Assembly (NCBI GenBank): GCA_964552535.1
Contig: CAZKHE010000001.1
Coordinates: 27,976-91,975 of the forward strand
Length of the DNA: 64,000 nt
Reading direction: 5' to 3'
Source: an uncultured Enterobacteriaceae bacterium
Lineage (GTDB): Bacteria > Pseudomonadota > Gammaproteobacteria > Burkholderiales > SG8-39
The notes beneath the pieces were generated by a model. The model made no database searches, had not been told where the DNA came from, and worked only from the letters and a program-made list of their open reading frames with translations. How positions within the stretch are numbered: position 1 is the stretch's first letter; every line of letters starts with the position of its first letter. The position numbers and the translations under genes are program-made. This document shows positions 21,275 through 64,000 of this stretch, piece after piece.

Positions 21275-22207
21275 TCAGTTCCTGCGGGCGTCAGCCTCCC
21301 AGGTCTCGCCTCCCACTCTCGAAACGAAGAACGAGATCCGGTCACCGGTGATGCGCCCCTCGTACTGATCAATCACGTCCACCCGGGTCTCCGGGTGGCC
21401 GGCCAGCGTCAGCATTGATCGCTTCGTCTTGAACGACACGCGGTCACCCTTGACGCGGCCATCGTAGATCGAGGACTGCCGCCTCAGCCAGTTGTCCATG
21501 ACCAAGTGCGGCGGGTAGTCGACTTCGGTTTCTCCCACGATCGTGTCATCGATCTGGTTGAGCCGGATGACGGTCCGGAAGGTCTTCGGACCCTCCTCGA
21601 TCAACCAGGTGCCGCTCACGACCGCTTGCACTGGTTTCGCTGCATCGACTTTGGGTCTAGCGTCCGGGCGTTGCTGCGAAACGTAGACAGAGGCGATCAC
21701 GACGACCAGCGCCGCAGTCAGTCCCGCGAGCACGGCGCCGATGCCTCGCGCTCCGCGGTCGGATCGAGCCATGTTGGAAGGCGCTGCGGTCCGGGTGGCG
21801 TCGTTCGACCCGCGGTCCATATCGACGAGGGCCTGGATGGCCGCGAACAGCGCCTGACACCCCGGATGTGCGGGATCGCCGTTCCAGTTCATCAGCGATG
21901 CTGCCTGAATGCGCCGGAACTCGAGGGGGAGCTTCACCTCTTCGAGCAAGGCCGGCGCGAGGATACCCCGTTCCGCGCCTGCGCCGGCTTCGTTCCGGAC
22001 CCACGCGGAGGAGACCGAGTGCCGCGACCAGAGAACGACCACGCATCTAGCGTCATCGATCGCTTGTTCGATCTCCCGATCGAACGATTGCCCGACGTGA
22101 ACTCGGCGATCCCACCAGACCGACCACCCGTGCTGCTCCAGCACGCGCGCAAGCGCGTCCGCAACCGCTACGTCCTCGCGCGCGTAGCTGATGAAGATGT
22201 CCGCCAC
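21275..22207 (-). CDS. TIR-domain protein with single TM helix and C-terminal extracytoplasmic beta-rich domain
   Basis: N-terminal bacterial TIR hallmarks: DIFISYAREDVAVA, VWWDRR, CVVVLWSRHSVSSAWVRNEAG (conserved Glu codon at 21989-21991). TM segment GIGAVLAGLTAALVVVIASVYV. The C-terminal domain has an internal duplicated motif Y(D/E)GR(V/I)xGDR(V/I)SF. GTG start. Confidence 0.8.
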   Translation of the reverse strand: MADIFISYAREDVAVADALARVLEQHGWSVWWDRRVHVGQSFDREIEQAIDDARCVVVLWSRHSVSSAWVRNEAGAGAERGILAPALLEEVKLPLEFRRIQAASLMNWNGDPAHPGCQALFAAIQALVDMDRGSNDATRTAAPSNMARSDRGARGIGAVLAGLTAALVVVIASVYVSQQRPDARPKVDAAKPVQAVVSGTWLIEEGPKTFRTVIRLNQIDDTIVGETEVDYPPHLVMDNWLRRQSSIYDGRVKGDRVSFKTKRSMLTLAGHPETRVDVIDQYEGRITGDRISFFVSRVGGETWEADARRN

Positions 22208-49235: not shown

Positions 49236-49501
49236 GCGGGCAGGTCCCCGTCGTCACCGCATCCGATCAGGGAAGCCGCCGCCGCGCCGGCTGCGGGAAC
49301 GGATCGACGGGCTCGTCCCAAGCGGAGCGCTCCCGGCTTGACGAGCCGCCACTCGCCTCGGCCATCTGGCCGACCACGCCCGCTGCTGCGTTGCGTTACG
49401 TTTGCGGAGTTGCGGAGTACGCTGTATACGCGCGACCGGCCATGTCGGTCGCGCCGCTCAGGAAGGACCCGGCTCTCGCCGCACAGCAAGGGAGGCGTCA
49501 G

Positions 49502-51592
49502 ATGTCGAGCGGCAAACCGTTGCCCGGATTCGAGGACCGCGCCCCGCCCGACCGGTATTGCGACCTCATCCTGACCGGAGGCGTCACCAGCGCCATCGCC
49601 TACCCGGGCGCCATCTTCGCGCTCGCCACCGCGTATCGCTTCAACAGCATCGGCGGATCGTCCTCGGGCGCCGGGACCGCCGCGCTCGCCGCCGCCGCGG
49701 AGTACCGCCGCCGTCACGGCTCGCCGGAGGGCTTCCGTCTCCTCCTGGAGCGGACCGCCGAGGTGGCCGACGTGAAGGAGGACGGGAAGACCCTGCTCGA
49801 GTGGCTGTTCCAGCCGGCCGCGGACTGTGGGCGGCTGTTCGCTGCACTGGTGCCCGGCTTCGCCTCGCCGGTCAACAAGGGCAAATTGGTCTCGATGCAC
49901 GTGGCGAAGGTTTACGGCTCACGAGGCCTCGTACTCGCCATTGGCGCTACCGCGACTGCGGGGGCGCTTGCCCACGCCGTTCACGCCCTGCTCGGATGGC
50001 CTGCACCGACGCCAGGGGTACTGACCGGAGCCGCGTTCATGATCGCTTGGGCGCTGTTCGCCCTGTGGCTCGTGTACGTCGACGTGCGGCGCATGGTGAA
50101 CCGCGACTACGGTCTCTGCACCGGATACGAGCGCTCGCCGGGCGCCGCGCAGCCGCCGCTGACCGAGTGGCTGCACGCGCTCATCCAGGAGATCGCCGGA
50201 CGCCGCCCCGACCAAGCGCCCCTGACCTTTCACGACCTCGCCACGGCCCCGGGCTCGCCGCGGGACACGCTGGGCGATGCCAGCCCGCCGGGTGCGGTGT
50301 CGATCAACCTTCAGATGTACACCGCAAACCTGACCCACGGACGGCCGTACGTCTTTCCGCAGGAGCGAACGGGCTCCGCCGGCGCGCACGCGAACGCGCC
50401 GCCGGAGGCGGAGGCGGACGCGCTGTACTTCCGTCCGTGGGAGCTGCGGCGGCTGTTCCCCGCCGACGTGATCGAGCACATGAAGACCGATCCGGTCACC
50501 GGCGCGTCCAATCGCTATGTCGGCAGCGTCGTGCCCGACGAGCCGCGCCGCGAGCGCGCCTTCTGGGAGCACTGGTGGCCATCGTCATCGCCGCGCACCG
50601 CCGACGACGAAGCGGACAACACGCTGTGGCGCCTGCCGCGCGAGCACCTGCCGATCCTGGTCGCAGCGCGCATGAGCATCAGCTTCCCGGTGCTGTTCTC
50701 CGGGGTGCCGCTGTGGGCGATGGAACGAAAGAACCAGAGCCTCGACGCCGATGACGGCCAGCACAACAGGGTCTTCCGGCGTTGCGTCTTCTCCGACGGC
50801 AGCCTCTGCTCCAACTTTCCCATCCATCTCTTCGACAGCTGGCTGCCCGCGTGGCCGACCTTTGGCATCTCCCTGCAGGAGCGCGTCCCGGACCCCGCGA
50901 ATCCCCCGCCTCGTCAACGCCTCTGGAAACGGGCCGCGACGCGGGACGTGACCGTGACCCTGCCCGATGACCATCGCGCCGGCCGGCACAACCGCTGGAA
51001 CAATTTCGACTACGAGCCCGGTGCGAGCGCGCGCCTGTTCTCGTTCGTGAACGCCATGCTCTCGACCACGATGAACTGGAGCGACGCGACGCTCGCGCGC
51101 CTGCCCGGCGTGCGCGACCGTGTCGCGGAGGTCACCCTGGAGCCCGGGATCGGCGGCCTCAACATCCGCATGACGCCCGGGCAAATCCGGAAGCTTGCCG
51201 ACGGTGGCGCCGACGCCGGGGTGGAGCTGCTGAAGCGCTTCGCCGGGCGCGGCCGCACAAGGGCGGGCGAACTCGCCGACGGCTGGAACGAGCACCGCTG
51301 GGTGCGGTTCAACGTGCTGCGCGACAGCCTCACTGCCGGGCTCGCGGGTCTGACGTGGTCGGCCTCGCAGCGGCGTTACGCCAAGCCCATCCGCGAGCTC
51401 ATCCGCGAGGCGACGCGCGAGCCGCCCCTCGCCGGCGACGCCACATCGCAGATTCATGCTGCCCAGGCGGCGGCACTCGAGGCGGTGCTGAACGCACTGA
51501 TGCAGGCGGAGCGCGCGCTCACCCGTCCGACGGTGACCCAGCCGTATGCGCCATCGCCGCGGCCGGCGATGCGCGTGCGGCCGCCACTGTAG
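49502..51592 (+). CDS. Patatin-like phospholipase family protein (long form with hydrophobic insertion and large C-terminal extension)
   Basis: Preferred start is ATG 49502 (SD gggagg); alternatives are ATG 49442 and the track start 49391. Oxyanion region DLILTGGVTSAIAYPG. Nucleophile elbow GGSSSG (Ser codon 49661-49663). Catalytic Asp in FSDGSL (50795-50797). Confidence 0.8.
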   Translation: MSSGKPLPGFEDRAPPDRYCDLILTGGVTSAIAYPGAIFALATAYRFNSIGGSSSGAGTAALAAAAEYRRRHGSPEGFRLLLERTAEVADVKEDGKTLLEWLFQPAADCGRLFAALVPGFASPVNKGKLVSMHVAKVYGSRGLVLAIGATATAGALAHAVHALLGWPAPTPGVLTGAAFMIAWALFALWLVYVDVRRMVNRDYGLCTGYERSPGAAQPPLTEWLHALIQEIAGRRPDQAPLTFHDLATAPGSPRDTLGDASPPGAVSINLQMYTANLTHGRPYVFPQERTGSAGAHANAPPEAEADALYFRPWELRRLFPADVIEHMKTDPVTGASNRYVGSVVPDEPRRERAFWEHWWPSSSPRTADDEADNTLWRLPREHLPILVAARMSISFPVLFSGVPLWAMERKNQSLDADDGQHNRVFRRCVFSDGSLCSNFPIHLFDSWLPAWPTFGISLQERVPDPANPPPRQRLWKRAATRDVTVTLPDDHRAGRHNRWNNFDYEPGASARLFSFVNAMLSTTMNWSDATLARLPGVRDRVAEVTLEPGIGGLNIRMTPGQIRKLADGGADAGVELLKRFAGRGRTRAGELADGWNEHRWVRFNVLRDSLTAGLAGLTWSASQRRYAKPIRELIREATREPPLAGDATSQIHAAQAAALEAVLNALMQAERALTRPTVTQPYAPSPRPAMRVRPPL

Positions 51593-51622
51593 CGAACGTC
51601 GTCCTCCTCGAGGGAGACAGCC

Positions 51623-54600
51623 ATGCAGTTCGAGCTCCAGAACAAGTCGCGCAGCCTGCTCGGCGTGACGGACCTCACCCTGGCCGCCCCCATCAAGCGC
51701 GGACTCATCCCCGCGCTCGACTCGCGCAGCTATGAAAGCCGGCTGCGCGTGCTGCTCAGGACGCTCAGCACGCTGCGCGTGTCCTCGCTGGAAGCCGAGC
51801 CGACGCCGCTGATCGCCGACGCCGTCGACCGCATCCGCGCCATCCACTCGTTCCGCCTGGCCATCGTCGGCGAGGATCAGCGCCAGCTCCTGCTCGCGGT
51901 CGCCTTCGACGGCGGCTGGGAGCCCTACATGCGGCGCATCTGGCGCGATCTCGGGCCGCTGCTCGACGTCATCTTCTGCAACTGCGAGGGCTACCTCATC
52001 TCCCGCGAGCACGTGTTCGCCGAGTACGCGGGATGGGTGCGCCGCGCGCAGGTAGCCACGGAGTTCTTCTACAACGCGAGCCCGCTCACGGTGAGCGACC
52101 TGCATTACCTGCGCGAAGCGGAGCGTCGGCGTCGCGACTGCGGCGCGCCGCCCGCGGCGGTCGGGGACAAGGTCGAGCAGGCAATGCCGGCGCTGACCGC
52201 GCTCTATCGTCTGACGGATCTCTATCCGCCCGCGAGCGCCGGTATCGCGAGCCTGAGCGGTCCGGGTGACGGCGCGTGTCTGCTGCGTGCCGCGCATCAT
52301 CTCCTCCACGATGTCGCCGACGACCTGCGACGTACGGAACCGGCGTCGCGCAACGCACCGGCCGAGCGTGCGGCGCTCGCGTGGTTCAGGCAATCCGACG
52401 CGCAGCCGCCGAGGGAACCGTCCGCCGCCGTGAGCTGGGACCCCAGCCGCGCGCAGGGCGGCATCGTCGAGCCGTACGCCGGGGTGTCGCATGCCTGCCT
52501 GCTGCTCATCGAGTTCGCCGACGAGAAGGGCGCTGCGGCGTTCGTCGGCGACCACACGTCGGGCGTGCTGGGGGCCCTTGGAGCGGCCGACGGCACCGCC
52601 GCCAAGCCGTTCGTCAACGTCGGCTTCACCGCGCAAGGGCTGAAGGTCGCGGGCGTCCCGGCCGGCACGCTGGAGCAGTTTCCCTTCGAGTTCCGCGAGG
52701 GCATGGCCGCGCGGGCGAGCATCCTCGGCGACCTGCACTACAACCATCCGACGCGCTGGACGCTCCCTGAACGCAACTGGCCCGAACGCCCGAGCGACCC
52801 TGCGTCCCGGGTCGAGATGACCTGCGTCCACGCGATCGTGCAGCTCTCGTGCCGCAGCAAGCTCTCCCTCGATTGGGACGACTTCGCCGGCAACGACCGG
52901 CATCCGCTCCGCGCGTTCATCCGGAAGTTCCACGATGACCTGCACAAGGCGGGCGTCCGCATCCTCTCCGTGCAGGCCATGCAGCGCTTCTCAGAGGGGC
53001 CGGAGACCACGCCGCGCGGACACTTCGGCTTTCTCGACGGCATCAGCCAGCCGAGCCTCGAGGGGGGCACCGGCGCGCCGTGGGACCGGTTCAAGGTCGG
53101 CGATCTCTTTCTCGGCCACGAGAATTCGGTCGGCGATGAGCCGGTCACGGGACGGCTCTGGGACGACAGCACGTTCCTCGTCGTGCGCAAGCTCCGGCAG
53201 GACGTGGCCGCGCTCGACGACGCGGTCGCGGGGCTGGGCAGCGAGGCCGCGAAGCTCGCGAAGGCGAAGATGATGGGGCGCCGGCTGGACGGCGAAAATC
53301 TGGTGGATGGCCGCGCGGGCAACGACTTCGACTTCTCGCAGGATCCCGACGGCGGCAAGTGCCCGCTGCAATCCCACATCCGGCGCGCGAATCCGCGCGC
53401 GCTGCGCGACGACCTCGCGACGGTGCCGCGCATCGTCCGGCGCGGCATGTCGTACGGGCCGCGCCGGGTCGAGCCGGGCCAGGCGAGCGAGCGCGGCGTC
53501 GTCTTCATGGCCTACTGCGCCTCCATCGCCGAGCAGTTCGAAGTCATCCAGGCCTGGCTCAGCGGCGGCAACAGCACCGGGGACGGCAGCTACTCCGGGC
53601 TGCGCGACCCGTTCATCGGCGTGCCGCAGCCCGGCGACCCGCACACCTTCGTCTATCGCGACGACAGGGGCAGGGAGGTGCGCCTCCCGCTCGATCCCGA
53701 CCGGCCCTTCGTCAAGCTGGAGTGGGGAGCGTATCTCTTCGTGCCCTCGATCCGCGCGCTGGAGGAGCTGAAGGCGATTGCGAGCGAAGCACCCGGCGAG
53801 GCGTCGGACGGGCGGAGGCAGGGCCAGGCGACGGACAAGCGCGAGAAGGCGCGCGAGCGCGAACGCACCGCGCAGGCGATGAAGGGCGCGGCGGTGATCG
53901 GCCGCCTGCAACTGCTGGAGCAGTTGCAGGGTCCCGAGGCGGCACGCACGCAATGGAAGATCGCTCTGGAGGACGTGAGCGCGCGCATCAGCGGCATGAG
54001 CCAGTTCATCTGGACCGCGATCCGCGAGCACTACGGCGGGACGCTGCGCACACCCTACGGCGTGCTGGTCGGCAGCCGTGCGCTGGTGATGCAAGTCTTC
54101 GACAACCGGGGCGATCTCTACTCGGTGCAGGGCTATGCCGACCGCATGAAGCAGTCGTTCGGCGAGATCTACCTCGGCATGGATCGCCTCGCGTACGCGC
54201 GCAGCGTGGCCGGCAACGTGAACGAAGCCCTCATGGCGGTCACGGAGCACGAGGCCTTCGAGTCCGCCCGGCACGTGACCGGCGACGTCGTGCGGCGCCT
54301 CGTGCCCGCCGGCGACGAGGCGACCATCGAGGTGAAGGACCTGGTCGACGAGGTGCTGGCAGCCCTCAGCGCGAAATGGTTCGGAATCCCCGATCCCGGA
54401 GGATCGTACGTCGTCTCCGGCGGCTGGCACTGGAGGGGCCCCAATGAGCTTCCCACGTGCCCCGGCCACTTCCACTCCCCGTCGCGCTACATGTTCCAGC
54501 CCGATCCCGGCACCGAGGCCAGCGAGGCCGGGCAGCGTCACGGCCAGGCGCTGTACGCAAGCGTGAGGGCGTTTGTCGACGCGCATCGCGGCGCGCGTAC

Positions 54601-55180
54601 GAGGCCGCAGGCCCCGCTCGGCAAGGCGCTGTTCGAGGCCATTCCCGGCGACTCGCCCGACGAGCGAAGCCTCCTCGCCAGCACGCTGATCGGCGTGATG
54701 ATGGGCTTCCTGCCGACGGTGGACGGCAACCTGCGCGGGCTCTTCTACGAGTGGATGAACGACCGCTCGCTGTGGGACCACGAGGGTGCGTATCTCGCGG
54801 CGGACGGCCACGGCGCCCATGCGCGCGCCCACCGCGCCCTGCTGGGGCCCCTGCGCCGGACGCTGCAGCTGCGGCCGGTGCCCGAGGTCGTCTGGCGCAT
54901 CGCGCTGAAGCAGCACCGGCTCGGGACGGTGACCATCGAGGAAGGCGAGACGGTCGTGGTCGGCATCGTGTCGGCGATGCAGGAGGCGCGCCTCGACGAC
55001 GTCGACGACGTGTATCCGGTGTTCGGCGGCAACCGCGGCGCGAAGCCGCATCCGCTGCACGCCTGCCCGGGCTACGCGATGGCGATGGGCGTCATGCTCG
55101 GGGTGGTGGCGGGACTGCTGGAGGCGGCACGGCCGCGGCCCACGCTGTCGCCGTTCGCGTTGCGGATGGCGCGCCGCTAG
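51623..55180 (+). CDS. 1185-aa multidomain haem protein: unknown N-terminal domain + DyP-type peroxidase + P450-like (Cys-ligated) C-terminal domain
   Basis: SD gggaga precedes the ATG. DyP motifs: QGGIVEPY, GHFGFLDGISQP (Asp codon 53036-53038), VVRKLRQDV, CPLQSHIRRANPR (proximal His codon 53375-53377), RIVRRGMSYG, VVFMAYCASIAEQFEVIQ. The C-terminal ~390 aa show a P450-like K-helix/meander (LRRTLQLRPVPEVVWRIALKQHRLG..IEEGETVVV) and a Cys-pocket FGGNRGAKPHPLHACPGYAMAMG (Cys codon 55064-55066). Confidence 0.75.
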   Translation: MQFELQNKSRSLLGVTDLTLAAPIKRGLIPALDSRSYESRLRVLLRTLSTLRVSSLEAEPTPLIADAVDRIRAIHSFRLAIVGEDQRQLLLAVAFDGGWEPYMRRIWRDLGPLLDVIFCNCEGYLISREHVFAEYAGWVRRAQVATEFFYNASPLTVSDLHYLREAERRRRDCGAPPAAVGDKVEQAMPALTALYRLTDLYPPASAGIASLSGPGDGACLLRAAHHLLHDVADDLRRTEPASRNAPAERAALAWFRQSDAQPPREPSAAVSWDPSRAQGGIVEPYAGVSHACLLLIEFADEKGAAAFVGDHTSGVLGALGAADGTAAKPFVNVGFTAQGLKVAGVPAGTLEQFPFEFREGMAARASILGDLHYNHPTRWTLPERNWPERPSDPASRVEMTCVHAIVQLSCRSKLSLDWDDFAGNDRHPLRAFIRKFHDDLHKAGVRILSVQAMQRFSEGPETTPRGHFGFLDGISQPSLEGGTGAPWDRFKVGDLFLGHENSVGDEPVTGRLWDDSTFLVVRKLRQDVAALDDAVAGLGSEAAKLAKAKMMGRRLDGENLVDGRAGNDFDFSQDPDGGKCPLQSHIRRANPRALRDDLATVPRIVRRGMSYGPRRVEPGQASERGVVFMAYCASIAEQFEVIQAWLSGGNSTGDGSYSGLRDPFIGVPQPGDPHTFVYRDDRGREVRLPLDPDRPFVKLEWGAYLFVPSIRALEELKAIASEAPGEASDGRRQGQATDKREKARERERTAQAMKGAAVIGRLQLLEQLQGPEAARTQWKIALEDVSARISGMSQFIWTAIREHYGGTLRTPYGVLVGSRALVMQVFDNRGDLYSVQGYADRMKQSFGEIYLGMDRLAYARSVAGNVNEALMAVTEHEAFESARHVTGDVVRRLVPAGDEATIEVKDLVDEVLAALSAKWFGIPDPGGSYVVSGGWHWRGPNELPTCPGHFHSPSRYMFQPDPGTEASEAGQRHGQALYASVRAFVDAHRGARTRPQAPLGKALFEAIPGDSPDERSLLASTLIGVMMGFLPTVDGNLRGLFYEWMNDRSLWDHEGAYLAADGHGAHARAHRALLGPLRRTLQLRPVPEVVWRIALKQHRLGTVTIEEGETVVVGIVSAMQEARLDDVDDVYPVFGGNRGAKPHPLHACPGYAMAMGVMLGVVAGLLEAARPRPTLSPFALRMARR

Positions 55181-58100
55181 CGCGGCTGGAACTGCGCGCG
55201 CAACCGCGCGGCCTGCGCCAGGTGCCAGTGCATGCGCATCGACTCGAACGCCGCGCTCGCGCGTTCGACACCTGCCGCCGCGCCGTCGCGGTCGCCGCGC
55301 GCCAGCGCAATCTCCGCCGCGGCGAGATCGTTGCACGCCGTCTCGTGCGGCGAGCTGCGCGTGCGCGCGACCCGCTCGGCCCGTCGCAGGTGACGCTCGG
55401 CGGCGCGCCAGTCGCCCGCCGCCGCCTGCAGCCGCGCCATCGCGCGGCACGCCATGGCGCCGCCGAACCAGTCGCGCTTGCGCACGCGGCGCAGCGCCCG
55501 CGCCGCCTGGCGCCGCGCCTCGGCGGGTTGCCCGGCGGTCGCCAGCGCCTCGGCCAGCCAGCCGTGCACGAGGGACACGAACAGATTCTTGTCGCGCGAC
55601 TCGAGCCACGTCGCGGCCTCGGCCATGTCCTGCAGCAGCCGCGGATCGCGCGTGCCGTGCCACGCGGCGTAGGCGCCGAGGCCGCGGCTCATCGCGAACA
55701 GGTAGAGGCTGCGCACGCGCTCGGCGATCGCCTGCGCCGCGGCCGAGTCCTGGCGCGCCGCCTCCCAGCGGCCCTGCCAGAGGTTCACGCCGCTGCGCCA
55801 GCACAGCACCGACCCCTCGACCTCGTGCCCGCGCCACGGCAGGCACGCGAGCGCGTCGTCGAAGCAGGCCATCGCCTCGGGGAAGCGCCCGAGGTCGCCG
55901 AGCACGCTCGCCTTGCACGCGAGCGCATAGGCGAGGCCCGGCGAGGGGCGCGTCTCGGTCTCGCGGTCGCGGCGCAGGCGCGTGGTGTCGTCGAGCAGCG
56001 CGAGCGCGCCGCCGTAGTCGGCGGCCGCCGCCAGCGCCTGGCCCAGTGTCGCGCGCGCCTGCGCGGCGAGCCGCTGGTCGCCCAGCACGGTCGCCGCACG
56101 CACCGCCAGCTCGCAGTGCTCCACCGCGGCGCGCGACTCGCCGAGCGCGTAGTTCACGTACGCGAGCCAGTACTCCGCATACGCTTCGCCGGCGGCATCG
56201 CCGTGCTCGCGCGCCCGCGCCACCGCCCGATGGAAGATCGCGAGCTCCGCGCGCGACGGATCGAACACGGTGGCGAGGCCGAGGCGGCGAACGATCGAGC
56301 GCCACGCCTGATAGCGCTCGGCGGAGGCGGCCAGGCGGTCGAGCATGCCGAGCGCGGCGCCGTACTGCGCCTTGGCGGCGTCGATCGACGAGGCGGCCAT
56401 CGCCTTGTCGCCGGCGGTCGCCGCGTACCGCGTGGCCTCGGCGTACTCGCCCGCGCCGGCGAAGTGATAGGCGAGCGCCTCGCACGCATCCGCCTCGTCG
56501 CCGGCGCGCGCGTCCGCCTGGATCAGCTTCGCGATCTCGCGATGCATCGCGCGGCGCTTCTGCAGGCCCACCGCGCCGTACACCACGTCGCGCGTGATGC
56601 CGTGCTTGAAGCGCAGCGTCCCGTTCGCCTCGCCGGCGAACACCAGATCCTGCGCCGCCAGCGCGCGCACCCACAGGTGATCCTCGCCGCAGCCGGTGAG
56701 CCGCTCGAGCAGCCACGTGGGCACGACGTTGCCGATGACGGCCGCGGCGCTCAGCACGTGCGCCTGATCGCGCGGCAGCCGCGCGACGCGCGACTCGATC
56801 AGCGTCTCCAGCCACGCCGGCCCGCCGCGCACCGGGTCCAGGCCCGCGCTGGGACCGGCGCGCGCCACGGCGTGGCACAGCTCCTCGATGAACAGCGGAT
56901 TGCCGCCCGAGTAGCGGCGGATCTCGCCGGCCACGAAGGGATCGGCGGCGGGAAGCAGTTCCCCGATGGTGGCGTCCGCCTCGGCGGCGGAGAACGGCGC
57001 GAGCGCGAGATGGTCGGCGCCGGTGAGCTCGACGTCCCCGAGCTCCGGCGGACGCGTCGCCACCAGCAGCAGGACCGGGACGTTGCCGAGATCGCGGATC
57101 GCGTACACCACCTGCCGCGTGGCGTCGTCGGCCCAGTGCCAGTCGTCGATGAACAGCACCTGCGGCCGCAGCCGCGCCAGCGCCGCGAACACCTCGCGCA
57201 CCGCCGCGAGCGTCTGTTCCGGGGCGCTGCGGCGCGGCTCGGCCGTCCCTGGCGCTTCCGGATGCACGGAGAGCGCCGTCATCAGCTCGGTGCGGTAAGC
57301 GAGCAGCCCGGCGTCGATCTCCCCCAGCCCCGCCTCGATGGCCTGCGCGGCCGCGGCCGGGCTCATGCCGGGCACCAGCCCGAAGCGCGCGCGCAGCATC
57401 TGCAGGAAGGGCTGCAGCGGCTCGGCGCTCAGGTCGCCGCCGCAGTAGCCGCGCGACACCGTGCAAACCGGGGCGGCGAAGCGCTGCAGGAACTCCTCGG
57501 CGAGGCGGGTCTTGCCCACGCCCGGCGGTGCGGACACGGCAACGAAGCGCGCCCGCCCCGCGATCGCCCCGTCGAGCGCGCGCTGCAGCCACGCGAGCTC
57601 CTCGTGCCGGCCCACGAAGGGCACCAGCCCGCGCCGCGCGTGCGCCTCGAAGCGGGTGCGCAGCGGCATGCGCCCGAGAATGCGGTGGATGGCGAGCGGC
57701 TCGGCGCGGCCCTTCAGCGTCACGAAGCGGCGCTGCGCGGTCTCGAAGAGGTGGCTGCCCGGCCCGAGCGTCTCCTCGCTGACAAGGATCTCGTCGGCCT
57801 CCGCGACGTCGCTCAGGTGCTTGGCGATGCCGGGACCCGGCCCGAAGATCTCGACGCGGCCGGCCACGTTGTCGCCCTCGCGCGCGAGGACCACGCCGGA
57901 GTGGATGCCGGAGTGGACGCTGAGGTCGGGCGCGCCCTGCTGCGCATAGCGGATGCGCAGCAGGCGCACGGCGGCGTGGACGGCGAGCGCCGCCTCGACG
58001 GCACGGCGGCCGTCGTGCTCGGTCGCGTGCGGAAAGCCGAACACGGCCTGCAGGCCGTCGCCCTGGAACTGGTTGATCGCGCCGCCATGCCTGGCGACTG

Positions 58101-58266
58101 CGTCGCGGAACGCGGTGCGCACCTCGTTCAGCATCTCCGCGTACGTCTCGGCCTCCATCGCCCCCGAGAGGTGGGTGGAGTCCGAGAGGTCGGTGAACAG
58201 GATGGTCAGGTGACGGCGCTGCTCGGCATCGAACAGCTCGTCTTTCGGATCCGGATGGGCGGGCAT
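55177..58266 (-). CDS. Class-III nucleotide-cyclase-like domain + AAA/STAND P-loop ATPase + TPR-repeat protein
   Basis: ATG at 58266. Cyclase-like N-domain (LTILFTDLSDST, FQGDGLQAVFG, GIHSGVV). Walker A SAPPGVGKT, Walker B VLFIDDWHWAD. The long C-terminal region is Ala/Leu-rich TPR-like repeats. No HTH was recognised. Confidence 0.85.
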   Translation of the reverse strand: MPAHPDPKDELFDAEQRRHLTILFTDLSDSTHLSGAMEAETYAEMLNEVRTAFRDAVARHGGAINQFQGDGLQAVFGFPHATEHDGRRAVEAALAVHAAVRLLRIRYAQQGAPDLSVHSGIHSGVVLAREGDNVAGRVEIFGPGPGIAKHLSDVAEADEILVSEETLGPGSHLFETAQRRFVTLKGRAEPLAIHRILGRMPLRTRFEAHARRGLVPFVGRHEELAWLQRALDGAIAGRARFVAVSAPPGVGKTRLAEEFLQRFAAPVCTVSRGYCGGDLSAEPLQPFLQMLRARFGLVPGMSPAAAAQAIEAGLGEIDAGLLAYRTELMTALSVHPEAPGTAEPRRSAPEQTLAAVREVFAALARLRPQVLFIDDWHWADDATRQVVYAIRDLGNVPVLLLVATRPPELGDVELTGADHLALAPFSAAEADATIGELLPAADPFVAGEIRRYSGGNPLFIEELCHAVARAGPSAGLDPVRGGPAWLETLIESRVARLPRDQAHVLSAAAVIGNVVPTWLLERLTGCGEDHLWVRALAAQDLVFAGEANGTLRFKHGITRDVVYGAVGLQKRRAMHREIAKLIQADARAGDEADACEALAYHFAGAGEYAEATRYAATAGDKAMAASSIDAAKAQYGAALGMLDRLAASAERYQAWRSIVRRLGLATVFDPSRAELAIFHRAVARAREHGDAAGEAYAEYWLAYVNYALGESRAAVEHCELAVRAATVLGDQRLAAQARATLGQALAAAADYGGALALLDDTTRLRRDRETETRPSPGLAYALACKASVLGDLGRFPEAMACFDDALACLPWRGHEVEGSVLCWRSGVNLWQGRWEAARQDSAAAQAIAERVRSLYLFAMSRGLGAYAAWHGTRDPRLLQDMAEAATWLESRDKNLFVSLVHGWLAEALATAGQPAEARRQAARALRRVRKRDWFGGAMACRAMARLQAAAGDWRAAERHLRRAERVARTRSSPHETACNDLAAAEIALARGDRDGAAAGVERASAAFESMRMHWHLAQAARLRAQFQPR

Positions 58267-58403
58267 CGGTCGATCCACCTGAGGGGCGCGGGGAGATTGT
58301 GTGCCCCTCCCGGGGGCTGCGCAACAGCCGGGGACGGCCCGCCGGTGGAACGCCGGTGCGGGACTTGCTGCACCATCACCCTCTCCGCGACCCACGGAGC
58401 ACC

Positions 58404-59261
58404 ATGAAGCCCACCCGCAATCCCGACTCCGCTCCCGGCGACTGGTATGTCGACACGGCCTGCATCGATTGCGGCGCCGCCCGGCACGTCGCGCCCGATC
58501 TGATCGTCTGGCAGGGCGGCAAGAGCGTGTTCGCGCGGCAGCCCGCCACCGAGGAGGAGCGCATCGCGGCGTGGCGCGCCGTGCTGGTCTGCCCGACGGC
58601 GTCGGTGCGCAGCGAGATCAAGCAGGCGCGGCCGCCCGGCACGATCTTCCCGCAGCCGCTGACCGAGAACGTCTGGCGGTGCGGCTACAACGCCCGGTCG
58701 TCGTTCGGCGCGCACTCGTACTTCGTCGCGCGCCCGGGCAGCAACCTGCTCGTGGATTCGCCGCGCCATGCCGCGGACCTCGTGCACTGGTTCGAGTCGC
58801 GGGGCGGGATCGCGCACATCCTCCTGTCCCACCAGGACGACGTCGCCGACGCGGGCAAGTACGCGCAGCACTTCGGCGCGCGGGTCTGGATCCATCGCGA
58901 CGACAGCGCGGCTGCGGCCTACGCCACCGACGTCCTCGAAGGTACGTCCGCGCGTGCCGTCGCGGACGGCGTCATCGCCATTCCGCTGCCGGGACACACC
59001 CGCGGCAGCGTCGCCTACCTGTTCGACGACCGCGTGCTGTTCACCGGTGATTCACTCGCGTGGAGCGCGCGCGAGCAGGACCTCGTGGCGTTCCGCGATG
59101 CGTGCTGGTACTCGTGGACGACGCTGACCGCCTCGCTCGGGAAGCTTCTGGACTATCGGTTCGAATGGGTGCTGCCGGGCCACGGCTGGCCGGTGCAGCT
59201 GCCGGCGGCGGAGATGCATGCGCGGCTGCGGGCGCTGGTCGAGCGGATGGCGCGCGATTAG
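58404..59261 (+). CDS. Ferredoxin-like N-terminal module fused to an MBL-fold metallo-hydrolase
   Basis: ATG at 58404. The N-terminal WYVDTACIDCGAARHVAPDL ... VLVCPTASV resembles a single-cluster ferredoxin. MBL motif LLSHQDDVAD, later LPGHTRGS and LPGHG. Confidence 0.7.
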   Translation: MKPTRNPDSAPGDWYVDTACIDCGAARHVAPDLIVWQGGKSVFARQPATEEERIAAWRAVLVCPTASVRSEIKQARPPGTIFPQPLTENVWRCGYNARSSFGAHSYFVARPGSNLLVDSPRHAADLVHWFESRGGIAHILLSHQDDVADAGKYAQHFGARVWIHRDDSAAAAYATDVLEGTSARAVADGVIAIPLPGHTRGSVAYLFDDRVLFTGDSLAWSAREQDLVAFRDACWYSWTTLTASLGKLLDYRFEWVLPGHGWPVQLPAAEMHARLRALVERMARD

Positions 59262-59325: not shown

Positions 59326-60753
59326 TCACGCCGAGCCGGCGGACGGAATCCGCAACCGCGCCGCCGGATCCCCGAACACCATGTAGTTGAGCGCGTCGGT
59401 GCGCCACAGCCAGTGGTCGACCAGCTTGCGCTGCGTCAGCGCATCCCAGGCGAGGCGGCCGCGGCGCTCGCGATCGAAGTAGCTCGCCAGGAGCTGATTG
59501 CCGACGCGCAGCCGGCGCCGCATGTCCTCCATCGCAAGCCCGGCGGGCTGCACGCCGAGGAGCTGGTTCACCGCGTGCACGAACGGCTGCAGCCGCTCAT
59601 GCCAGCGGCCGGCGATCAGCGCATCGGGCTGGTCGGCGAATCCGTGCAGGAATGCGGTATCCAGATGCCCCACGTACGCGATCGGTCCGCGCGGATGGGC
59701 AAGCAGCGCGCGCGGCAGCGCGGCCACGAAGTCCCCCTCGGCGCAGCGCTTCGGCATGCCTTCGAGCCAGTGCGCGAAGTCGCTCTCCGCCGGGGTGCCG
59801 TAGCCGAAGCAGGCGAACTGGAAGAACACCGCGCCGTCGAGGAACGGCGCGTCGGCCGGCACGTCGTCCGCCGAGAACAGCGTGTCGAGCGCGCGCGGGC
59901 GATAGTCGGTGCAGCAGATGGCGCCGTTGTAGCGCGCCTGGCGTACCGGGTCCGCGGCCGGCGCGCATACGCCGTGGCTCGCCGTGTACACGAGCGCCGG
60001 CCGGCCGCCGTGCAGCGCCTCCACCAGCGCGTCCTTCCCGGCATCGTCGCCGGCGAGCAGCGTCGTGGCGAATCCCAGCGTGCCGCGCGCGTGCTGCGCC
60101 AGCGGCTCGATCATGTGATGCCGGCTGTACCAGGTCGCGTCGGTCCAGACGCCGGTGTCGGGTCCGAACAGCACGACGCGCCGCTCGACGGCCGGCTCCG
60201 GCGCGGACTCCAGGCGCACCACCTTCCGCGCGTAGGTCTCGTACGCTGCGATCTCGTCGAACGCGACGCGCCCGACGCTCGCCACGGACGCCAGCATCGA
60301 CTGCAGGCGGAACGGCAGGTGCGCCGGTTCGCCCGCGAGCAGCAGGTATTGCGGCACCTGCTTGCCATCGAGCTCGCGCGCGAAGTACTCGTCCTGCAGC
60401 CAGTCGGCCCACGCGTCCTCGGCGGCGCCGTCGATGGTCAGCACGGCGTCGTCAGCCGATGCGCCGCGCTGACGCATCAGCGGCGCCAGCGCCTCGACGA
60501 TCTCCTCGCGACGCGGATCGTCGCGCGCCACGACGAGCGCCCAGCCCACCGCGTGCGGATCGCCGACATCCGCCACCCGGCGCGCGACCTCGCCGCGGAA
60601 GACGATCCCGCGCTCGGCGGCATCGGTCTGCGCGCGGACGGACCCGGCGGCGCCGCGCATGGCCGCGAGCACCGTGCGCGCGGTCGCGGCTTCGTCGATC
60701 CGCGCGTAAGCCGGTTCGCCGTCGAGCGTGCGGCCCAGCGGGTAGAGCGTCAT
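59326..60753 (-). CDS. Cytoplasmic clan-CD cysteine peptidase, gingipain (C25)-like caspase fold
   Basis: ATG at 60753 overlaps the upstream stop (ATGA). QYLLLAGEPAHLPF is typical of the C25 N-terminal subdomain. His-Gly (ALVYTASHG, His codon 59974-59976) and Cys (FFQFACFGYG, Cys codon 59809-59811) lie in caspase-like order and spacing. No signal peptide. Confidence 0.6.
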   Translation of the reverse strand: MTLYPLGRTLDGEPAYARIDEAATARTVLAAMRGAAGSVRAQTDAAERGIVFRGEVARRVADVGDPHAVGWALVVARDDPRREEIVEALAPLMRQRGASADDAVLTIDGAAEDAWADWLQDEYFARELDGKQVPQYLLLAGEPAHLPFRLQSMLASVASVGRVAFDEIAAYETYARKVVRLESAPEPAVERRVVLFGPDTGVWTDATWYSRHHMIEPLAQHARGTLGFATTLLAGDDAGKDALVEALHGGRPALVYTASHGVCAPAADPVRQARYNGAICCTDYRPRALDTLFSADDVPADAPFLDGAVFFQFACFGYGTPAESDFAHWLEGMPKRCAEGDFVAALPRALLAHPRGPIAYVGHLDTAFLHGFADQPDALIAGRWHERLQPFVHAVNQLLGVQPAGLAMEDMRRRLRVGNQLLASYFDRERRGRLAWDALTQRKLVDHWLWRTDALNYMVFGDPAARLRIPSAGSA

Positions 60754-63700
60754 GCGCCGGCGGGCGAATCGGCGGGGGCCACGCCCAGACGCCAACGTTC
60801 GAGCTCGTCGGGCGGGCGGTTCGCGACCGTGCCGAACCCCGGTTCGAGATACGCGGCATAGCGGCTCTCGTTGTCGCGATCCAGCGCCCAGTACAGGTCC
60901 TTCAGGGCCTTCTCGTCGTCCTCGCTGCACTCGACCGCGGAGAAGGTGTTTCTCTGCACGATGACGCCGCACACGAACGCCGTGCAGCCCGCGAGCGCCT
61001 CGGGATGCTGCGCGGCCACCGCCTCCACCCTCGGGAGCAGATCCGCCCGCAGCGCATCCATCGCCGTCGGCAGGTAGTCGCGATACGTCGCCCACGGCTG
61101 GGCGCGGACGTCCGCTACCGTGGCATCGACCCGATCGGGCACGTCCGCGACGAGCGGGAACCACGGCTGGGCATCCGGCGGCGACCAGCGGGCGCGGAGG
61201 TCCTCCAGCATCGCGAGCACCGCGCCGGTCTGTCCCGCGGCGAAATCCGGCGCAAGATAGCTGGCGTTCTGCCGGTCCCACAGATGGCGCAGCAGCCCGG
61301 CCATCATGGGGACCGCGAACGGCACCGCCGCGGCGTGCAGCTCGGCGCGGTGCACGAGCTTGCGCACCACGATCTCGGCGTAGCGCGTCGTCTCGATCAT
61401 GTCGGAGATGCGGTTGGGGTGCCCCGCGACCACGGCGTTCCAGGCGACGTCCTCGACGGACGCCTCCTCGTCGCGCAGCGTGGCGCGGCCGTACGTGTCC
61501 GCGGCCGCCTGCTGCGCGCCCATGATCGCCTGCATCAGGGCAGCCATGGAGCCGTCGTCCTGCCGGCCCTCCGGCATGCGGACCCGCATCGTCACGCCGC
61601 GCAGCGCCGACTCCTGCGCAGCCAGGTGCTCGCGGGCGGCCTGCAGGTAGCCGTTCCATGCAGCATTGCCGTCGCCGGCGGCCGCGTTGATGTGGCGGAT
61701 CGTGTCGGTCAGCAGCGCCACCAGGCCCTCGCCGGTCTCACGCCCGGCGCGGTGGTTCGCCCGCACGAAGTGCAGGAGCGCGCGCGTGCCGGGATGACGC
61801 AGGCGATCGGCCAGCGCGATCGCGCGGTCCAGCGCGGCGGCATCCGCGGGTTCATCCGGGTCGCGGCAGGCGGACATGAGCTCGATCACGCCGAACGCAG
61901 CGTCGAGACGCGGATGCTCGCCCTGACGGGCGACCGCCACCGCCGCGCGCCACGCCTCGTCGGCGGACGCCTCGGTCCGGTCCGGCGCGAAGATGCCGTC
62001 GAGCAGGTCGGCAGCGGCATCGTCGCGCAGGGGCGCATCGCCGGGCACGAGCCGGTGATCCGGATCGCCGAGCAGGATCGCCGTCGCCCACACCGCGGCG
62101 CGCGTGCCGCTCTCCGCGACCGCGCGGCGTGCACAGCGCAGCGCTTCGCCGACGGGCCCCGCGCCCGCCTCGTCGTAGAACGCGATCGCCAGCTCCACCG
62201 CCGCGCGATCGGGCACCGGCGTCGCATGCGCCACGACCGCGGGCGCGCCGAGCTCGGCGAACGCGTGCGCGAGCCCGCGGCTCAGGCCAGCGCCGAGATA
62301 GCGCGTCTGACCGAGATTGCAGGTGTTCAGGTACACGAACGGATAGCTGCGCTGCGGGCTCGCCTCCAGGTCGTTCACCACCAGCCGGCGTCCGCCGGGC
62401 AGGACGAGCCACTCGGTGCCCGCGCCCGCCTCCCCGTGCGCGGAGACGTGCAGCACGTCGACGTACGACAGGCGATCGGTGAAGAACGATGCGGCGAGAC
62501 GAGGCGGGTCGATCGGCGGTGCATCGAAGCCCGCACGCGCGAGCGTGGCGCCGATCTCCTCCTGCTCGAACGCGGCGAGGTCGAGCGGATCGTAGCCTTC
62601 CGCGACAGGCGCGGCGACCACCAGCGCGCGTTGCATCCGCGGCACCGCGGCGCGCGTGTCGAGCGCGGCGGCCAGCTGCGCCAGCGACGTGAAGCGCGCG
62701 ATGACGCGCGTGACGCCGAGCCAGCCGCCGTGACCGTCGCCGCGCAGCAGCTCGTAGGGCACGGTGTCGAGCCGCGAGCGCGAGTCGGGGGCGAGCAGCA
62801 GCGTGTCGTGCGCGTCGATCGCCTGCCGCACGGAAGCGGGCAACGCCTCGAACGCGGCCCGGCCGGCCTGCTCGAGTGCGGCGTCGGCGCGCAGGCGATC
62901 GCGTGCCGGGGCGCGCAACGCGGCGCCCGCGGCCTCCTCGAGCGCGCGCAGGGCATCGAGCGCCGCGGCTGGCGCCCGTTCGACGCCCACTGCGCCGTCG
63001 CCGCCGAGGACCGTGATGATCGCCAACTCGTCGCCCAGGCCCTGCAGGACCACGGCGACGGCATCGGGCCGCTCCGTCATCGCACGGCGCAGCCGGCCGA
63101 GCGAGTCGGCGGCGAACACCTCGGGATCGACCGCTTCGTCGCCGCTCCTGGCCGGCAGGATCGCCTGCGGCGGCGGCAGCACCGCGCTGCGCAGCAGATC
63201 GATCAACGCGCTGACGCGCACACGCGCGCGCGGATCCTCCCAGTCCGGGCCCTGGGTGAGCAGGAGCCGGATCGCCGACTCGATCGAACGATCGAGTAGC
63301 GCGCGCGAGCGCGGCTCGGCGAGCCACGCTGGATCCGCGGCGAGCGTGCCCCCGAGCAGCACGTCGAACATCTCCAGGAAGCGTACGGCGTCCGCGGCGT
63401 CGCGGGCGGCGGCAATCTCGAGCAGCGCCCCCATGGCGACGAGCTGGATGCTCGCCGCGCGCGCGGCCATCGCGTCGCGCACCGCCTGCATGGCCACCCG
63501 TTCCGCGGCGTCGAGGTCGCCCGCAGCGTGACGCGCGTAGGCCACGCCGATGCGCGCCGCGACCGGGAACAGGGGCGCGAACGCCGCGAGATGCTCCGAC
63601 TGCCGGCGCAGCCCGGCGCGCACCACCTCCACGGCGCGCGGAGCGGTCAGCCCTGCGGGCACCTCGCCCTCCGCCACGGCACGCCGATTGCGCTCCACGG

Positions 63701-64000
63701 CCGCGACGAGCGCCTCCGCCTGCTGCATGGCCTCCTCCGGCGGCAGCATCGCGACGATGGGGACGAAGTCGTAAGGGGAGAGATCGGCGGGCGGGCCGAT
63801 CTGCGCGATCGCCTCCACGGCCGTGCGCGCTGCCGCCCCGCGCTGCGCCGGCGCGGCCCCGGCGGCCGCGGTGCGCGCGAACCCGATCGCGGACGCCGCC
63901 AGCAGCGCATGCGCTTCCAGCACGGCGAGGCTGGCTTCCACGCTGCCGTCGGCCGCACCCGGCCCGGACCTGGCGAGCGGATCGCGCAGCACGGCGCTCC
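60750..64000 (-). CDS. CHAT-domain protein (caspase-fold peptidase) with helical-repeat N- and C-terminal regions; 5' end probably outside the window
   Basis: The frame is still open at nt 64000. The CHAT core spans about 62058-63065 and carries VLHVSAHGE (His codon 62436-62438) and FVYLNTCNLG (Cys codon 62319-62321), followed by PAVVAHATPVPD. The flanks are Ala/Leu-rich helical (TPR-like). Confidence 0.8.
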   Translation of the reverse strand, partial: SAVLRDPLARSGPGAADGSVEASLAVLEAHALLAASAIGFARTAAAGAAPAQRGAAARTAVEAIAQIGPPADLSPYDFVPIVAMLPPEEAMQQAEALVAAVERNRRAVAEGEVPAGLTAPRAVEVVRAGLRRQSEHLAAFAPLFPVAARIGVAYARHAAGDLDAAERVAMQAVRDAMAARAASIQLVAMGALLEIAAARDAADAVRFLEMFDVLLGGTLAADPAWLAEPRSRALLDRSIESAIRLLLTQGPDWEDPRARVRVSALIDLLRSAVLPPPQAILPARSGDEAVDPEVFAADSLGRLRRAMTERPDAVAVVLQGLGDELAIITVLGGDGAVGVERAPAAALDALRALEEAAGAALRAPARDRLRADAALEQAGRAAFEALPASVRQAIDAHDTLLLAPDSRSRLDTVPYELLRGDGHGGWLGVTRVIARFTSLAQLAAALDTRAAVPRMQRALVVAAPVAEGYDPLDLAAFEQEEIGATLARAGFDAPPIDPPRLAASFFTDRLSYVDVLHVSAHGEAGAGTEWLVLPGGRRLVVNDLEASPQRSYPFVYLNTCNLGQTRYLGAGLSRGLAHAFAELGAPAVVAHATPVPDRAAVELAIAFYDEAGAGPVGEALRCARRAVAESGTRAAVWATAILLGDPDHRLVPGDAPLRDDAAADLLDGIFAPDRTEASADEAWRAAVAVARQGEHPRLDAAFGVIELMSACRDPDEPADAAALDRAIALADRLRHPGTRALLHFVRANHRAGRETGEGLVALLTDTIRHINAAAGDGNAAWNGYLQAAREHLAAQESALRGVTMRVRMPEGRQDDGSMAALMQAIMGAQQAAADTYGRATLRDEEASVEDVAWNAVVAGHPNRISDMIETTRYAEIVVRKLVHRAELHAAAVPFAVPMMAGLLRHLWDRQNASYLAPDFAAGQTGAVLAMLEDLRARWSPPDAQPWFPLVADVPDRVDATVADVRAQPWATYRDYLPTAMDALRADLLPRVEAVAAQHPEALAGCTAFVCGVIVQRNTFSAVECSEDDEKALKDLYWALDRDNESRYAAYLEPGFGTVANRPPDELERWRLGVAPADSPAGA

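Follow-up and report, generated by a model that had tools for sequence, protein, structure and literature searches.

Two overlapping genes for caspase-fold proteins

The window analysed here is a 64,000-nucleotide (nt) stretch of DNA from an uncultured Enterobacteriaceae bacterium (assembly GCA_964552535.1, contig CAZKHE010000001.1, positions 27,976 to 91,975 of the forward strand; Burkholderiales, SG8-39 in the GTDB lineage). At its end lie two overlapping minus-strand genes, which encode two different proteins of the caspase fold (clan CD) and are the subject of this study. The first, a gene for a CHAT-domain protease (60750..64000), is present with its 3' 85% (1082 codons), and its 5' end lies beyond the window. 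Since the full-length protein P0121, to which the translation is 100% identical, comprises 1274 amino acids (aa), the window encodes its residues 193-1274, and the 192 N-terminal residues are located outside. The second gene (59326..60753) encodes a 475-aa protein, hereafter C25-like (C25L), which was characterised from its translation, an AlphaFold2 (AF2) model, Foldseek comparisons and sequence conservation. The plus-strand TCAT at 60750-60753 reads ATGA on the minus strand, where the TGA stop codon of the CHAT gene (60750-60752) shares bases with the ATG of the C25L gene (60753-60751). This 4-nt overlap, as ATGA or GTGA, is also kept in the three loci nearest to the window (L056, L002 and L055) and is consistent with translational coupling of the two genes.

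An earlier first-pass annotation of this DNA had pointed to the stop/start overlap, to an ordered His...Cys motif pair in each protein and to the lack of signal peptides. The overlap and all four motifs (VSAHGE and LNTCNLG in CHAT, TASHGV and QFACFGY in C25L) are present in the sequence, and a Kyte-Doolittle hydropathy scan, the only method applied to this question, detected no hydrophobic N-terminus or transmembrane-like segment in either protein. On the 3' side of the C25L gene, a convergent plus-strand gene (58299..59261) encodes a 4Fe-4S ferredoxin fused to a metallo-beta-lactamase fold (Pfam Fer4_13 and Lactamase_B), because of which the operon within the window is limited to two genes. 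This gene marks the 3' boundary of the operon and lies outside of the module; it has no counterpart beside C25L in other loci. Neither a terminator nor a promoter was detected in a scan of this end of the operon.

In the CHAT protein, the Pfam model PF12770 reaches 76.7 bits (cut-off 24, E=2.7e-21) and places the catalytic domain at residues 378-645 of the fragment (62064..62867, minus strand). The codons of the catalytic His (VSAHGE) and Cys (LNTCNLG) are found at 62436-62438 and 62319-62321, respectively, and all 29 CHAT partners that were aligned from other loci keep His and Cys in the same columns. The core is flanked by ~569 aa on the N-terminal side (full-length numbering) and by ~437 aa on the C-terminal side. 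These flanks had been described as more than 300 aa of helical repeats on each side. The lengths hold and a mostly helical nature is weakly supported by the AF2 model, which was built from an alignment of only 3 sequences and has a predicted local distance difference test score (pLDDT) of 40.8 and a predicted template modelling score (pTM) of 0.30; Pfam detected neither TPR nor any other repeat in them. Beyond CHAT, searches with Pfam, NCBIfam and PADLOC returned nothing, and a SAVED domain in particular is missing; among PDB sequences the protein has no detectable match. Few homologues of this protein were recovered, as a word-indexed search yielded 3 proteins and a profile of the three sequences retrieved only the query, probably because Ala-rich words fill the candidate list.

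The predicted structure of C25L is that of the gingipains. Its AF2 model, derived from 46 homologues, has a pLDDT of 86 and a pTM of 0.90, and in the PDB, Foldseek ranks structures of the gingipains RgpB and Kgp (4ief_D, 6i9a_A, 1cvr and 4rbm) in the top four places, ahead of the clan-CD enzyme separase. The gingipain matches (E 1e-7 to 2e-6, probability 1.0, TM-score 0.44-0.52) extend over ~435 aligned columns at 12-14% identity and cover both the N-terminal and catalytic subdomains. In the model, strand 252-258 is followed by H260 and G261, and strand 309-313 by A314 and C315; this His-then-Cys placement is the clan-CD arrangement described for RgpB. The codons of the catalytic His260 (TASHGV) and Cys315 (QFACFGY) are located at 59974-59976 and 59809-59811. 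Both residues are invariant in the alignment of the 46 homologues, which form the stand-alone clade, as are G261, Y318, G319, T320, P321, H363, D365 and others. Across 287 domains of the wider family the His is retained in 265 and the Cys in 254, with Ser in place of Cys in 12. A caspase-like fold of the second protein and the conservation of its dyad had been named beforehand as points to be checked, and both are borne out.

The label "gingipain/C25-like", in contrast, holds at the level of the fold but not at that of the Pfam family: the cut-off of Peptidase_C25 is 23 bits, and C25L reaches 15.7, in its C-terminal part only. NCBIfam and PADLOC have no match for C25L. Many C25L homologues have a precomputed PF01364 match and fused relatives reach up to 91 bits, and we base the C25 label on the fold and on these homologues, because the score of the window protein itself is below the threshold. 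Sequence profile searches of the PDB returned nothing with C25L and nothing useful with a C25-rich relative. Unlike the gingipains RgpB and Kgp (MEROPS C25), C25L is cytoplasmic and lacks a signal peptide (by hydropathy), the ~200-aa prodomain, the Ig-like domain and the type IX secretion C-terminal domain. Additional segments are also present at both ends: residues 1-60 comprise a strand plus long helix, and residues 380-456 a helical bundle, which is followed by one strand before the protein ends. As the Pfam threshold is missed and every feature of the secreted gingipains is lacking, C25L is not classed as a gingipain; it is a separate cytoplasmic branch that is gingipain-like in fold.

Conserved acidic residues follow the first and the fifth core strand of C25L, namely D199 (Asp in 179 of the 287 domains) and D365 (Asp in 231, Glu in 30). 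In RgpB, S1 involves Asp163, which follows the first strand, and also the L5 loop (PMC4357240), and D199 is found at a sequence position comparable to that of Asp163. By their positions relative to the published S1 residues, D199 and D365 are candidates for an S1 pocket that would bind Arg or Lys. The low-confidence loops 311-340 and 361-380 of the model, which surround the active site, and the clade-specific N-terminal 60 residues are likewise candidates, in this case for regulatory or cleavage regions.

Distribution and partners of C25L

A profile search against 1.84 billion representative proteins (50% identity clusters) retrieved 3,092 matches to the C25L family at E<=1e-3 and 1,546 at E<=1e-30. 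C25L occurs at 40-55% identity in bacteria (Gemmatimonadota, Chloroflexota, Acidobacteriota, Actinomycetota, Verrucomicrobiota, Nitrospirota, Bacteroidota, Planctomycetota and Thermodesulfobacteriota) and in archaea (Nitrososphaerales, Nitrosopumilus, Bathyarchaeota and Promethearchaeota). The systems are patchily spread and apparently horizontally mobile. In L057 a phage-type integrase and IS21 flank the pair, which comes directly after tig-clpP-clpX-lon, and in L001 it is found amid four kinds of transposase genes. On a 4.5-Mb Rhodothermales contig (L023:7791-13936) a solo C25L gene directly precedes Septu (PtuA E 3.5e-223, PtuB 3.5e-78), after which comes a TIR-PASTA protein matching PD-T4-6 models; this is a defence-island setting for a C25L without a CHAT partner.

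The linkage of C25L to other caspase-fold genes was surveyed in 51 genome loci found from C25L, which were scanned with our own profiles and of which representatives were checked by Pfam. A CHAT gene is located within 4 kb of C25L in 27 loci, and Peptidase_C14 caspase genes only are located within this distance in 6; no caspase-fold partner is present in 9 loci, and the remaining 9 are uninformative with a contig end less than 2 kb from C25L. A caspase-fold partner, either CHAT or C14, thus lies within 4 kb in 33 of the 42 informative loci (79%). The pairing therefore recurs in other genomes, and together with the fold, the dyads and the overlap this upholds the initial view of two clan-CD peptidases in one coupled operon.

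The arrangement of the paired genes differs considerably between loci. CHAT lies upstream with a 4-nt overlap in the window and its three nearest loci, while C25L is followed by an 850-880-aa TPR-CHAT protein after 13-97 nt in L003, L008, L012 (Promethearchaeota), L013, L014, L016, L036 and L057, and by an 1100-aa TPR-CHAT protein after 29 nt in L035. CHAT genes convergent to C25L are found in L030, L032 and L040. In three Bryobacterales loci a NACHT/AAA_16-CHAT-HEAT gene is followed by a gene for a 435-aa protein and then by C25L, and in Chloroflexota loci two or three C14 genes are located directly upstream of C25L. The C14 partner in L034 matches the PADLOC "caspase" model at 6e-40. The CHAT partners accordingly include TPR-CHAT proteins of ~860 aa, NACHT/AAA_16-CHAT-HEAT proteins of ~1174 aa and the 1274-aa form of the window. 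Judged from the sequences, the partner of C25L varies in architecture, and conservation is higher in C25L (mean pairwise distance 0.58) than in the CHAT domain of the partner (0.76). The distance matrices of C25L and of the partner CHAT are correlated with a Spearman coefficient of 0.34, a value reached by 6 of 5000 permutations.

Other genes recur beside C25L. The 435-aa protein of the Bryobacterales loci belongs to a conserved 435-450-aa type directly upstream of C25L (L047:6492-7793, L048, L050 and L036:6615-7961), which was found in three Bryobacterales loci and one Verrucomicrobiota locus, has no Pfam or PADLOC match and may represent a third component. In L028 (9412-13074, minus strand) and L042 (9290-12661, minus strand), the gene for a FecR-TPR-PASTA(x7) protein of ~1200 aa separates C25L from that for an 842-aa protein, which has CHAT at its N-terminus; PASTA repeats are unusual in such an apparent conflict-system setting. 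Uncharacterised neighbours (the 435-aa, 470-aa, 429-aa and 229-aa proteins and others) were tested as divergent caspase-fold proteins and gave no signal. A gasdermin partner was also considered, and the small downstream genes of the Chloroflexi loci have no Pfam or PADLOC match.

Fusions link the same domains within one polypeptide. In P0155, CHAT precedes a C25L domain whose dyad is intact, P0256 is a CHAT-nSTAND1-C25L fusion, and P0186 and P0192 are nSTAND1 NTPases with two C25L copies each. Tandem C25L proteins (P0186, P0191, P0206, P0212 and P0220) typically combine one intact copy with one dead copy, in which the Cys is replaced by Ser, Glu, Gly or Asp, and none of the C25L copies detected in P0192 and P0256, both nSTAND1 fusions, retains the Cys. 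The combination of intact and dead copies suggests a pseudo-protease or pairing role and resembles the way in which active caspase domains pair with pseudo-caspase domains. In L026, L027, L042 and L044, two or three C25L paralogues also lie next to each other. These loci are mostly archaeal (Nitrosotenuis, Bathyarchaeota and Nitrosopumilus) with the addition of one Acidobacteriota locus; those of Nitrosopumilus have no CHAT nearby and are located on short contigs.

A reverse search from the 860-aa TPR-CHAT partner returned 72 metagenome loci, including 49 close relatives (36-52% identity). C25L is located directly upstream of TPR-CHAT in 15 of the 49, with a gap of 4-294 nt, and in 16 others a lipase-like alpha/beta-hydrolase of ~460 aa is located directly downstream; the two never occur together among these relatives. 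The hydrolase possesses the lipase motif GHSMG, and its PDB matches are LCAT/PLA2-XV and bacterial lipases. TPR-CHAT plus hydrolase (L076, L081-L089, L091-L093, L095, L101 and L104; e.g., L086:5251-6624) is a second, apparently undescribed pair of CHAT and effector. At least 13 loci combine TPR-CHAT with a further conserved, uncharacterised protein of 210-250 aa (examples are L008:7318-8001, L013:12097-12840, L014:8943-9641 and L071:1497-2126), and three of these loci also have C25L; the protein is absent from L002, the full locus nearest to the window. For a typical TPR-CHAT partner, taken from L057, PADLOC has no match.

A putative initiator-executioner module

We interpret the pair as a self-contained, translationally coupled module of cytoplasmic caspase-fold cysteine proteases, in which, by analogy with described systems, CHAT would act as initiator and C25L as executioner; we assign this reading a probability of about 0.5. 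An initiator plus executioner had been one of two possibilities raised by the first-pass annotation, and it now gains comparative support from the fusions, the swapping of partner genes and the analogy. Its observed basis comprises the gene structure, the fold, the conservation of the dyads, the linkage, the fusions and the exchange of partners. From sequence and analogy we infer the direction of activation, the cleavage events, the substrate specificity and the biological role. The CHAT protein is placed upstream of C25L mainly because the presence of alternative enzymes beside one protease is what would be expected of an activator or sensor with interchangeable effectors.

Under this interpretation the variable CHAT protein, bearing repeats or an NTPase, would be a gated, site-specific initiator that responds to a trigger. 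It would activate the conserved C25L zymogen either by limited proteolysis or by pairing. Activated C25L might then be a broad executioner, probably cutting after Arg or Lys, and the resulting degradation of cellular proteins would kill the cell or arrest its growth, in the manner of abortive infection or of some other conflict response. A wider proposal is more tentative. C25L may represent an unrecognised family of cytoplasmic executioners of the gingipain fold in bacteria and archaea including Asgard, switched on by a CHAT, STAND-CHAT or C14 initiator in a cascade independent of CRISPR or nucleotide signalling, with the effectors of TPR-CHAT (C25L or lipase-like) being interchangeable.

Caspase cascades have long been regarded as a eukaryotic invention. 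One bacterial example, tied to CRISPR signalling, has been described, in which PCaspase, a promiscuous executioner, becomes active through cleavage by activated SAVED-CHAT (bioRxiv 10.1101/2023.06.23.546230). The window pair resembles this system in that a single gene cluster encodes two cytoplasmic cysteine proteases of the caspase fold, which differ from each other; there the CHAT initiator activates the second protease with an abortive phenotype, and here a CHAT protein with extensions is linked to a conserved clan-CD protease. It differs in the lack of a SAVED domain, CRISPR-Cas and cyclic-oligonucleotide genes, in the gingipain (C25-like) rather than C14 fold of the second protease, and in the direct ATGA overlap without genes for a sigma factor, inhibitor or kinase in between. 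No cas genes were found among the annotated neighbours in the window, beyond which the region upstream of the CHAT gene extends. Given the missing SAVED domain, the lack of a CRISPR context and the different family of its second protease, we do not count the pair as a member of the SAVED-CHAT/PCaspase system.

Further parallels are found in other conflict systems. Csx29 of Craspase (type III-E CRISPR-Cas) is a gated, site-specific CHAT protease with a helical/TPR regulatory region. A profile built from the 860-aa TPR-CHAT partners of other loci gave weak matches to Csx29 chains in their CHAT regions (E 0.005-0.09). Unlike Craspase, the window pair has no gRAMP/Cas7-11, Csx30, Csx31 or RpoE, and the window CHAT protein has an additional C-terminal region of the ~437 aa given above. 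In type IV Thoeris, abortive infection is executed by a promiscuous, Arg-specific caspase (Rousset et al., bioRxiv 10.1101/2024.10.24.620036), and this executioner role is the one proposed, by analogy, for C25L. That protease is, however, activated by a TIR-made nucleotide instead of a second protease and belongs to a different family, and no TIR gene adjoins the window pair. Caspase-like peptidases have also been reported from mobile conflict systems with STAND NTPases, TPR/HEAT, TIR and alpha/beta-hydrolases (Kaur et al., eLife 2020 and 2021). C25L relatives fused to nSTAND1 and the CHAT partners with NACHT/AAA_16 are reminiscent of these systems, in contrast to the window pair itself, which is without an NTPase.

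Neither gingipain, C25 nor a CHAT/C25-like pairing turned up in text searches of the two papers by Kaur et al., and full-text searches of the literature and targeted reading of a 2026 STAND survey likewise brought up no account of CHAT paired with a C25/gingipain-like protein. The pair belongs among the caspase-fold protease modules of prokaryotic conflict systems and is not categorically new; its function is read by inference. If this reading is correct, two-tier caspase-fold cascades would be a widespread, free-standing design in bacteria and archaea, and a conserved, unannotated family of roughly 1,500 clusters would receive a function. Such cascades would employ the gingipain protease family, which to our knowledge has so far been known only from secreted virulence factors. 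The reading would also suggest a general rule by which CHAT proteases activate interchangeable effector zymogens, either protease or lipase, and such pairs would offer compact, testable two-gene cassettes. They are of interest for prokaryotic immunity and for the origins of caspase cascades.

Several observations weigh against an initiator-executioner module. C25L is without a caspase-fold partner within 4 kb in the 9 informative loci mentioned above, and the sole distant relative found with the architecture of the window CHAT protein (P0123, 33% identity) has no C25L neighbour. Partner swapping was seen in the 860-aa TPR-CHAT subfamily, not in the 1274-aa subfamily of the window. The predicted specificity for Arg or Lys is based solely on the positions of D199 and D365, and the C25L domain can also serve non-catalytic roles, because STAND-fused copies often lack the Cys. 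PADLOC-DB v2 has no match to the CHAT or the C25L protein at E<=1. The neighbourhood in the window is mostly metabolic without a recognisable defence island. Finally, the G+C content at third codon positions (GC3) of the two genes, 0.90 and 0.92, is the same as in the rest of the window, and the pair therefore shows no sign of recent acquisition.

Among the alternatives, the one that survives best, although we consider it unlikely, is a heterocomplex of CHAT and C25L activated by pairing, or a reversed order in which C25L acts upstream and trims the helical flanks of the CHAT protein to release it. The tandem C25L proteins with their one intact and one dead copy suggest that pairing is part of the biology of the family, fusions such as P0155 hold CHAT and C25L in one chain, and the 4-nt overlap favours joint synthesis, which would be consistent with a complex. 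Initiator caspases are activated by dimerisation. For clan-CD enzymes in general, activation by dimerisation as well as by proteolysis has been reviewed (PMC4357240). However, C25L also occurs alone or with C14 instead of CHAT, and the exchange of C25L for an unrelated hydrolase beside TPR-CHAT is better explained by a protease acting on an interchangeable effector. Moreover, the known CHAT enzymes Csx29 and SAVED-CHAT are specific upstream proteases (bioRxiv 10.1101/2023.06.23.546230).

The pair could also serve proteolysis or programmed cell death in the physiology of the host (stress, development or turnover) and not the defence against invaders, which we regard as less probable still. Its position among genes of metabolic or housekeeping type, its native codon composition and the missing PADLOC match would agree with such a role, as would the soil and sediment lineages with complex lifestyles among which many hosts are found. 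Also in keeping with it, viral relatives were found neither in IMG/VR contigs, searched with two peptide patterns, nor as structural matches in BFVD. Against a physiological role stand the patchy occurrence across bacteria and archaea in spite of 40-55% identity, the integrase, insertion sequence (IS) or transposase flanks at some loci, the STAND fusions, the one locus beside Septu and TIR, and the swapping of the partner gene between loci. All of these are typical of conflict systems rather than of core physiology.

The second possibility raised by the first-pass annotation, a protease with a pseudo-protease regulator, is disfavoured for the window pair, in which both catalytic dyads are conserved. 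Dead C25L copies do exist in STAND-fused and tandem relatives, and the window protein falls under the Pfam C25 threshold, so that C25L might conceivably be an inactive decoy, a substrate or a regulatory pseudo-protease for CHAT. Nevertheless, His260, Gly261, Cys315 and many surrounding residues are invariant in the stand-alone clade and the dyad is retained in about 92-96% of all domains, a conservation not expected of a pseudo-enzyme, and we consider this role very improbable. A fortuitous adjacency of genes with unrelated functions, for which the C25L genes that stand alone and the related CHAT gene without a C25L neighbour could be cited, is contradicted by the comparative sequence data, i.e., the linkage in 33 of 42 loci, the conserved 4-nt overlap, the fusion proteins and the position of C25L beside 15 of 49 TPR-CHAT relatives, and its probability is negligible.

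Other genes of the window

The window has a G+C content of 71%, and its genes include those for KatG, a TonB-dependent receptor, glycoside hydrolases, a cyclase-AAA_16-TPR regulator, a patatin-like protein and a large DyP-related protein. The only TIR gene of the window (21278-22207, minus strand), ~37 kb from the protease pair, encodes 310 aa with TIR at the N-terminus (Pfam TIR_2, E=3.6e-24); several TIR models of PADLOC, SAVED-TIR and ThsB among them, match this protein weakly. Separated from the pair by one gene, a 1072-aa adenylate/guanylate cyclase - AAA_16 - TPR protein of STAND-like composition is encoded (55180-58395, minus strand). The weak matches of its cyclase domain to PycC models in PADLOC (best 1e-13) probably reflect generic cyclase similarity. 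Two large adjoining genes (49391-55177, plus strand) encode a 733-aa patatin-like phospholipase and an 1185-aa protein, neither of which has a match in PADLOC; the sole Pfam match of the 1185-aa protein is the C-terminal domain of DyP-type peroxidases at residues 514-652.

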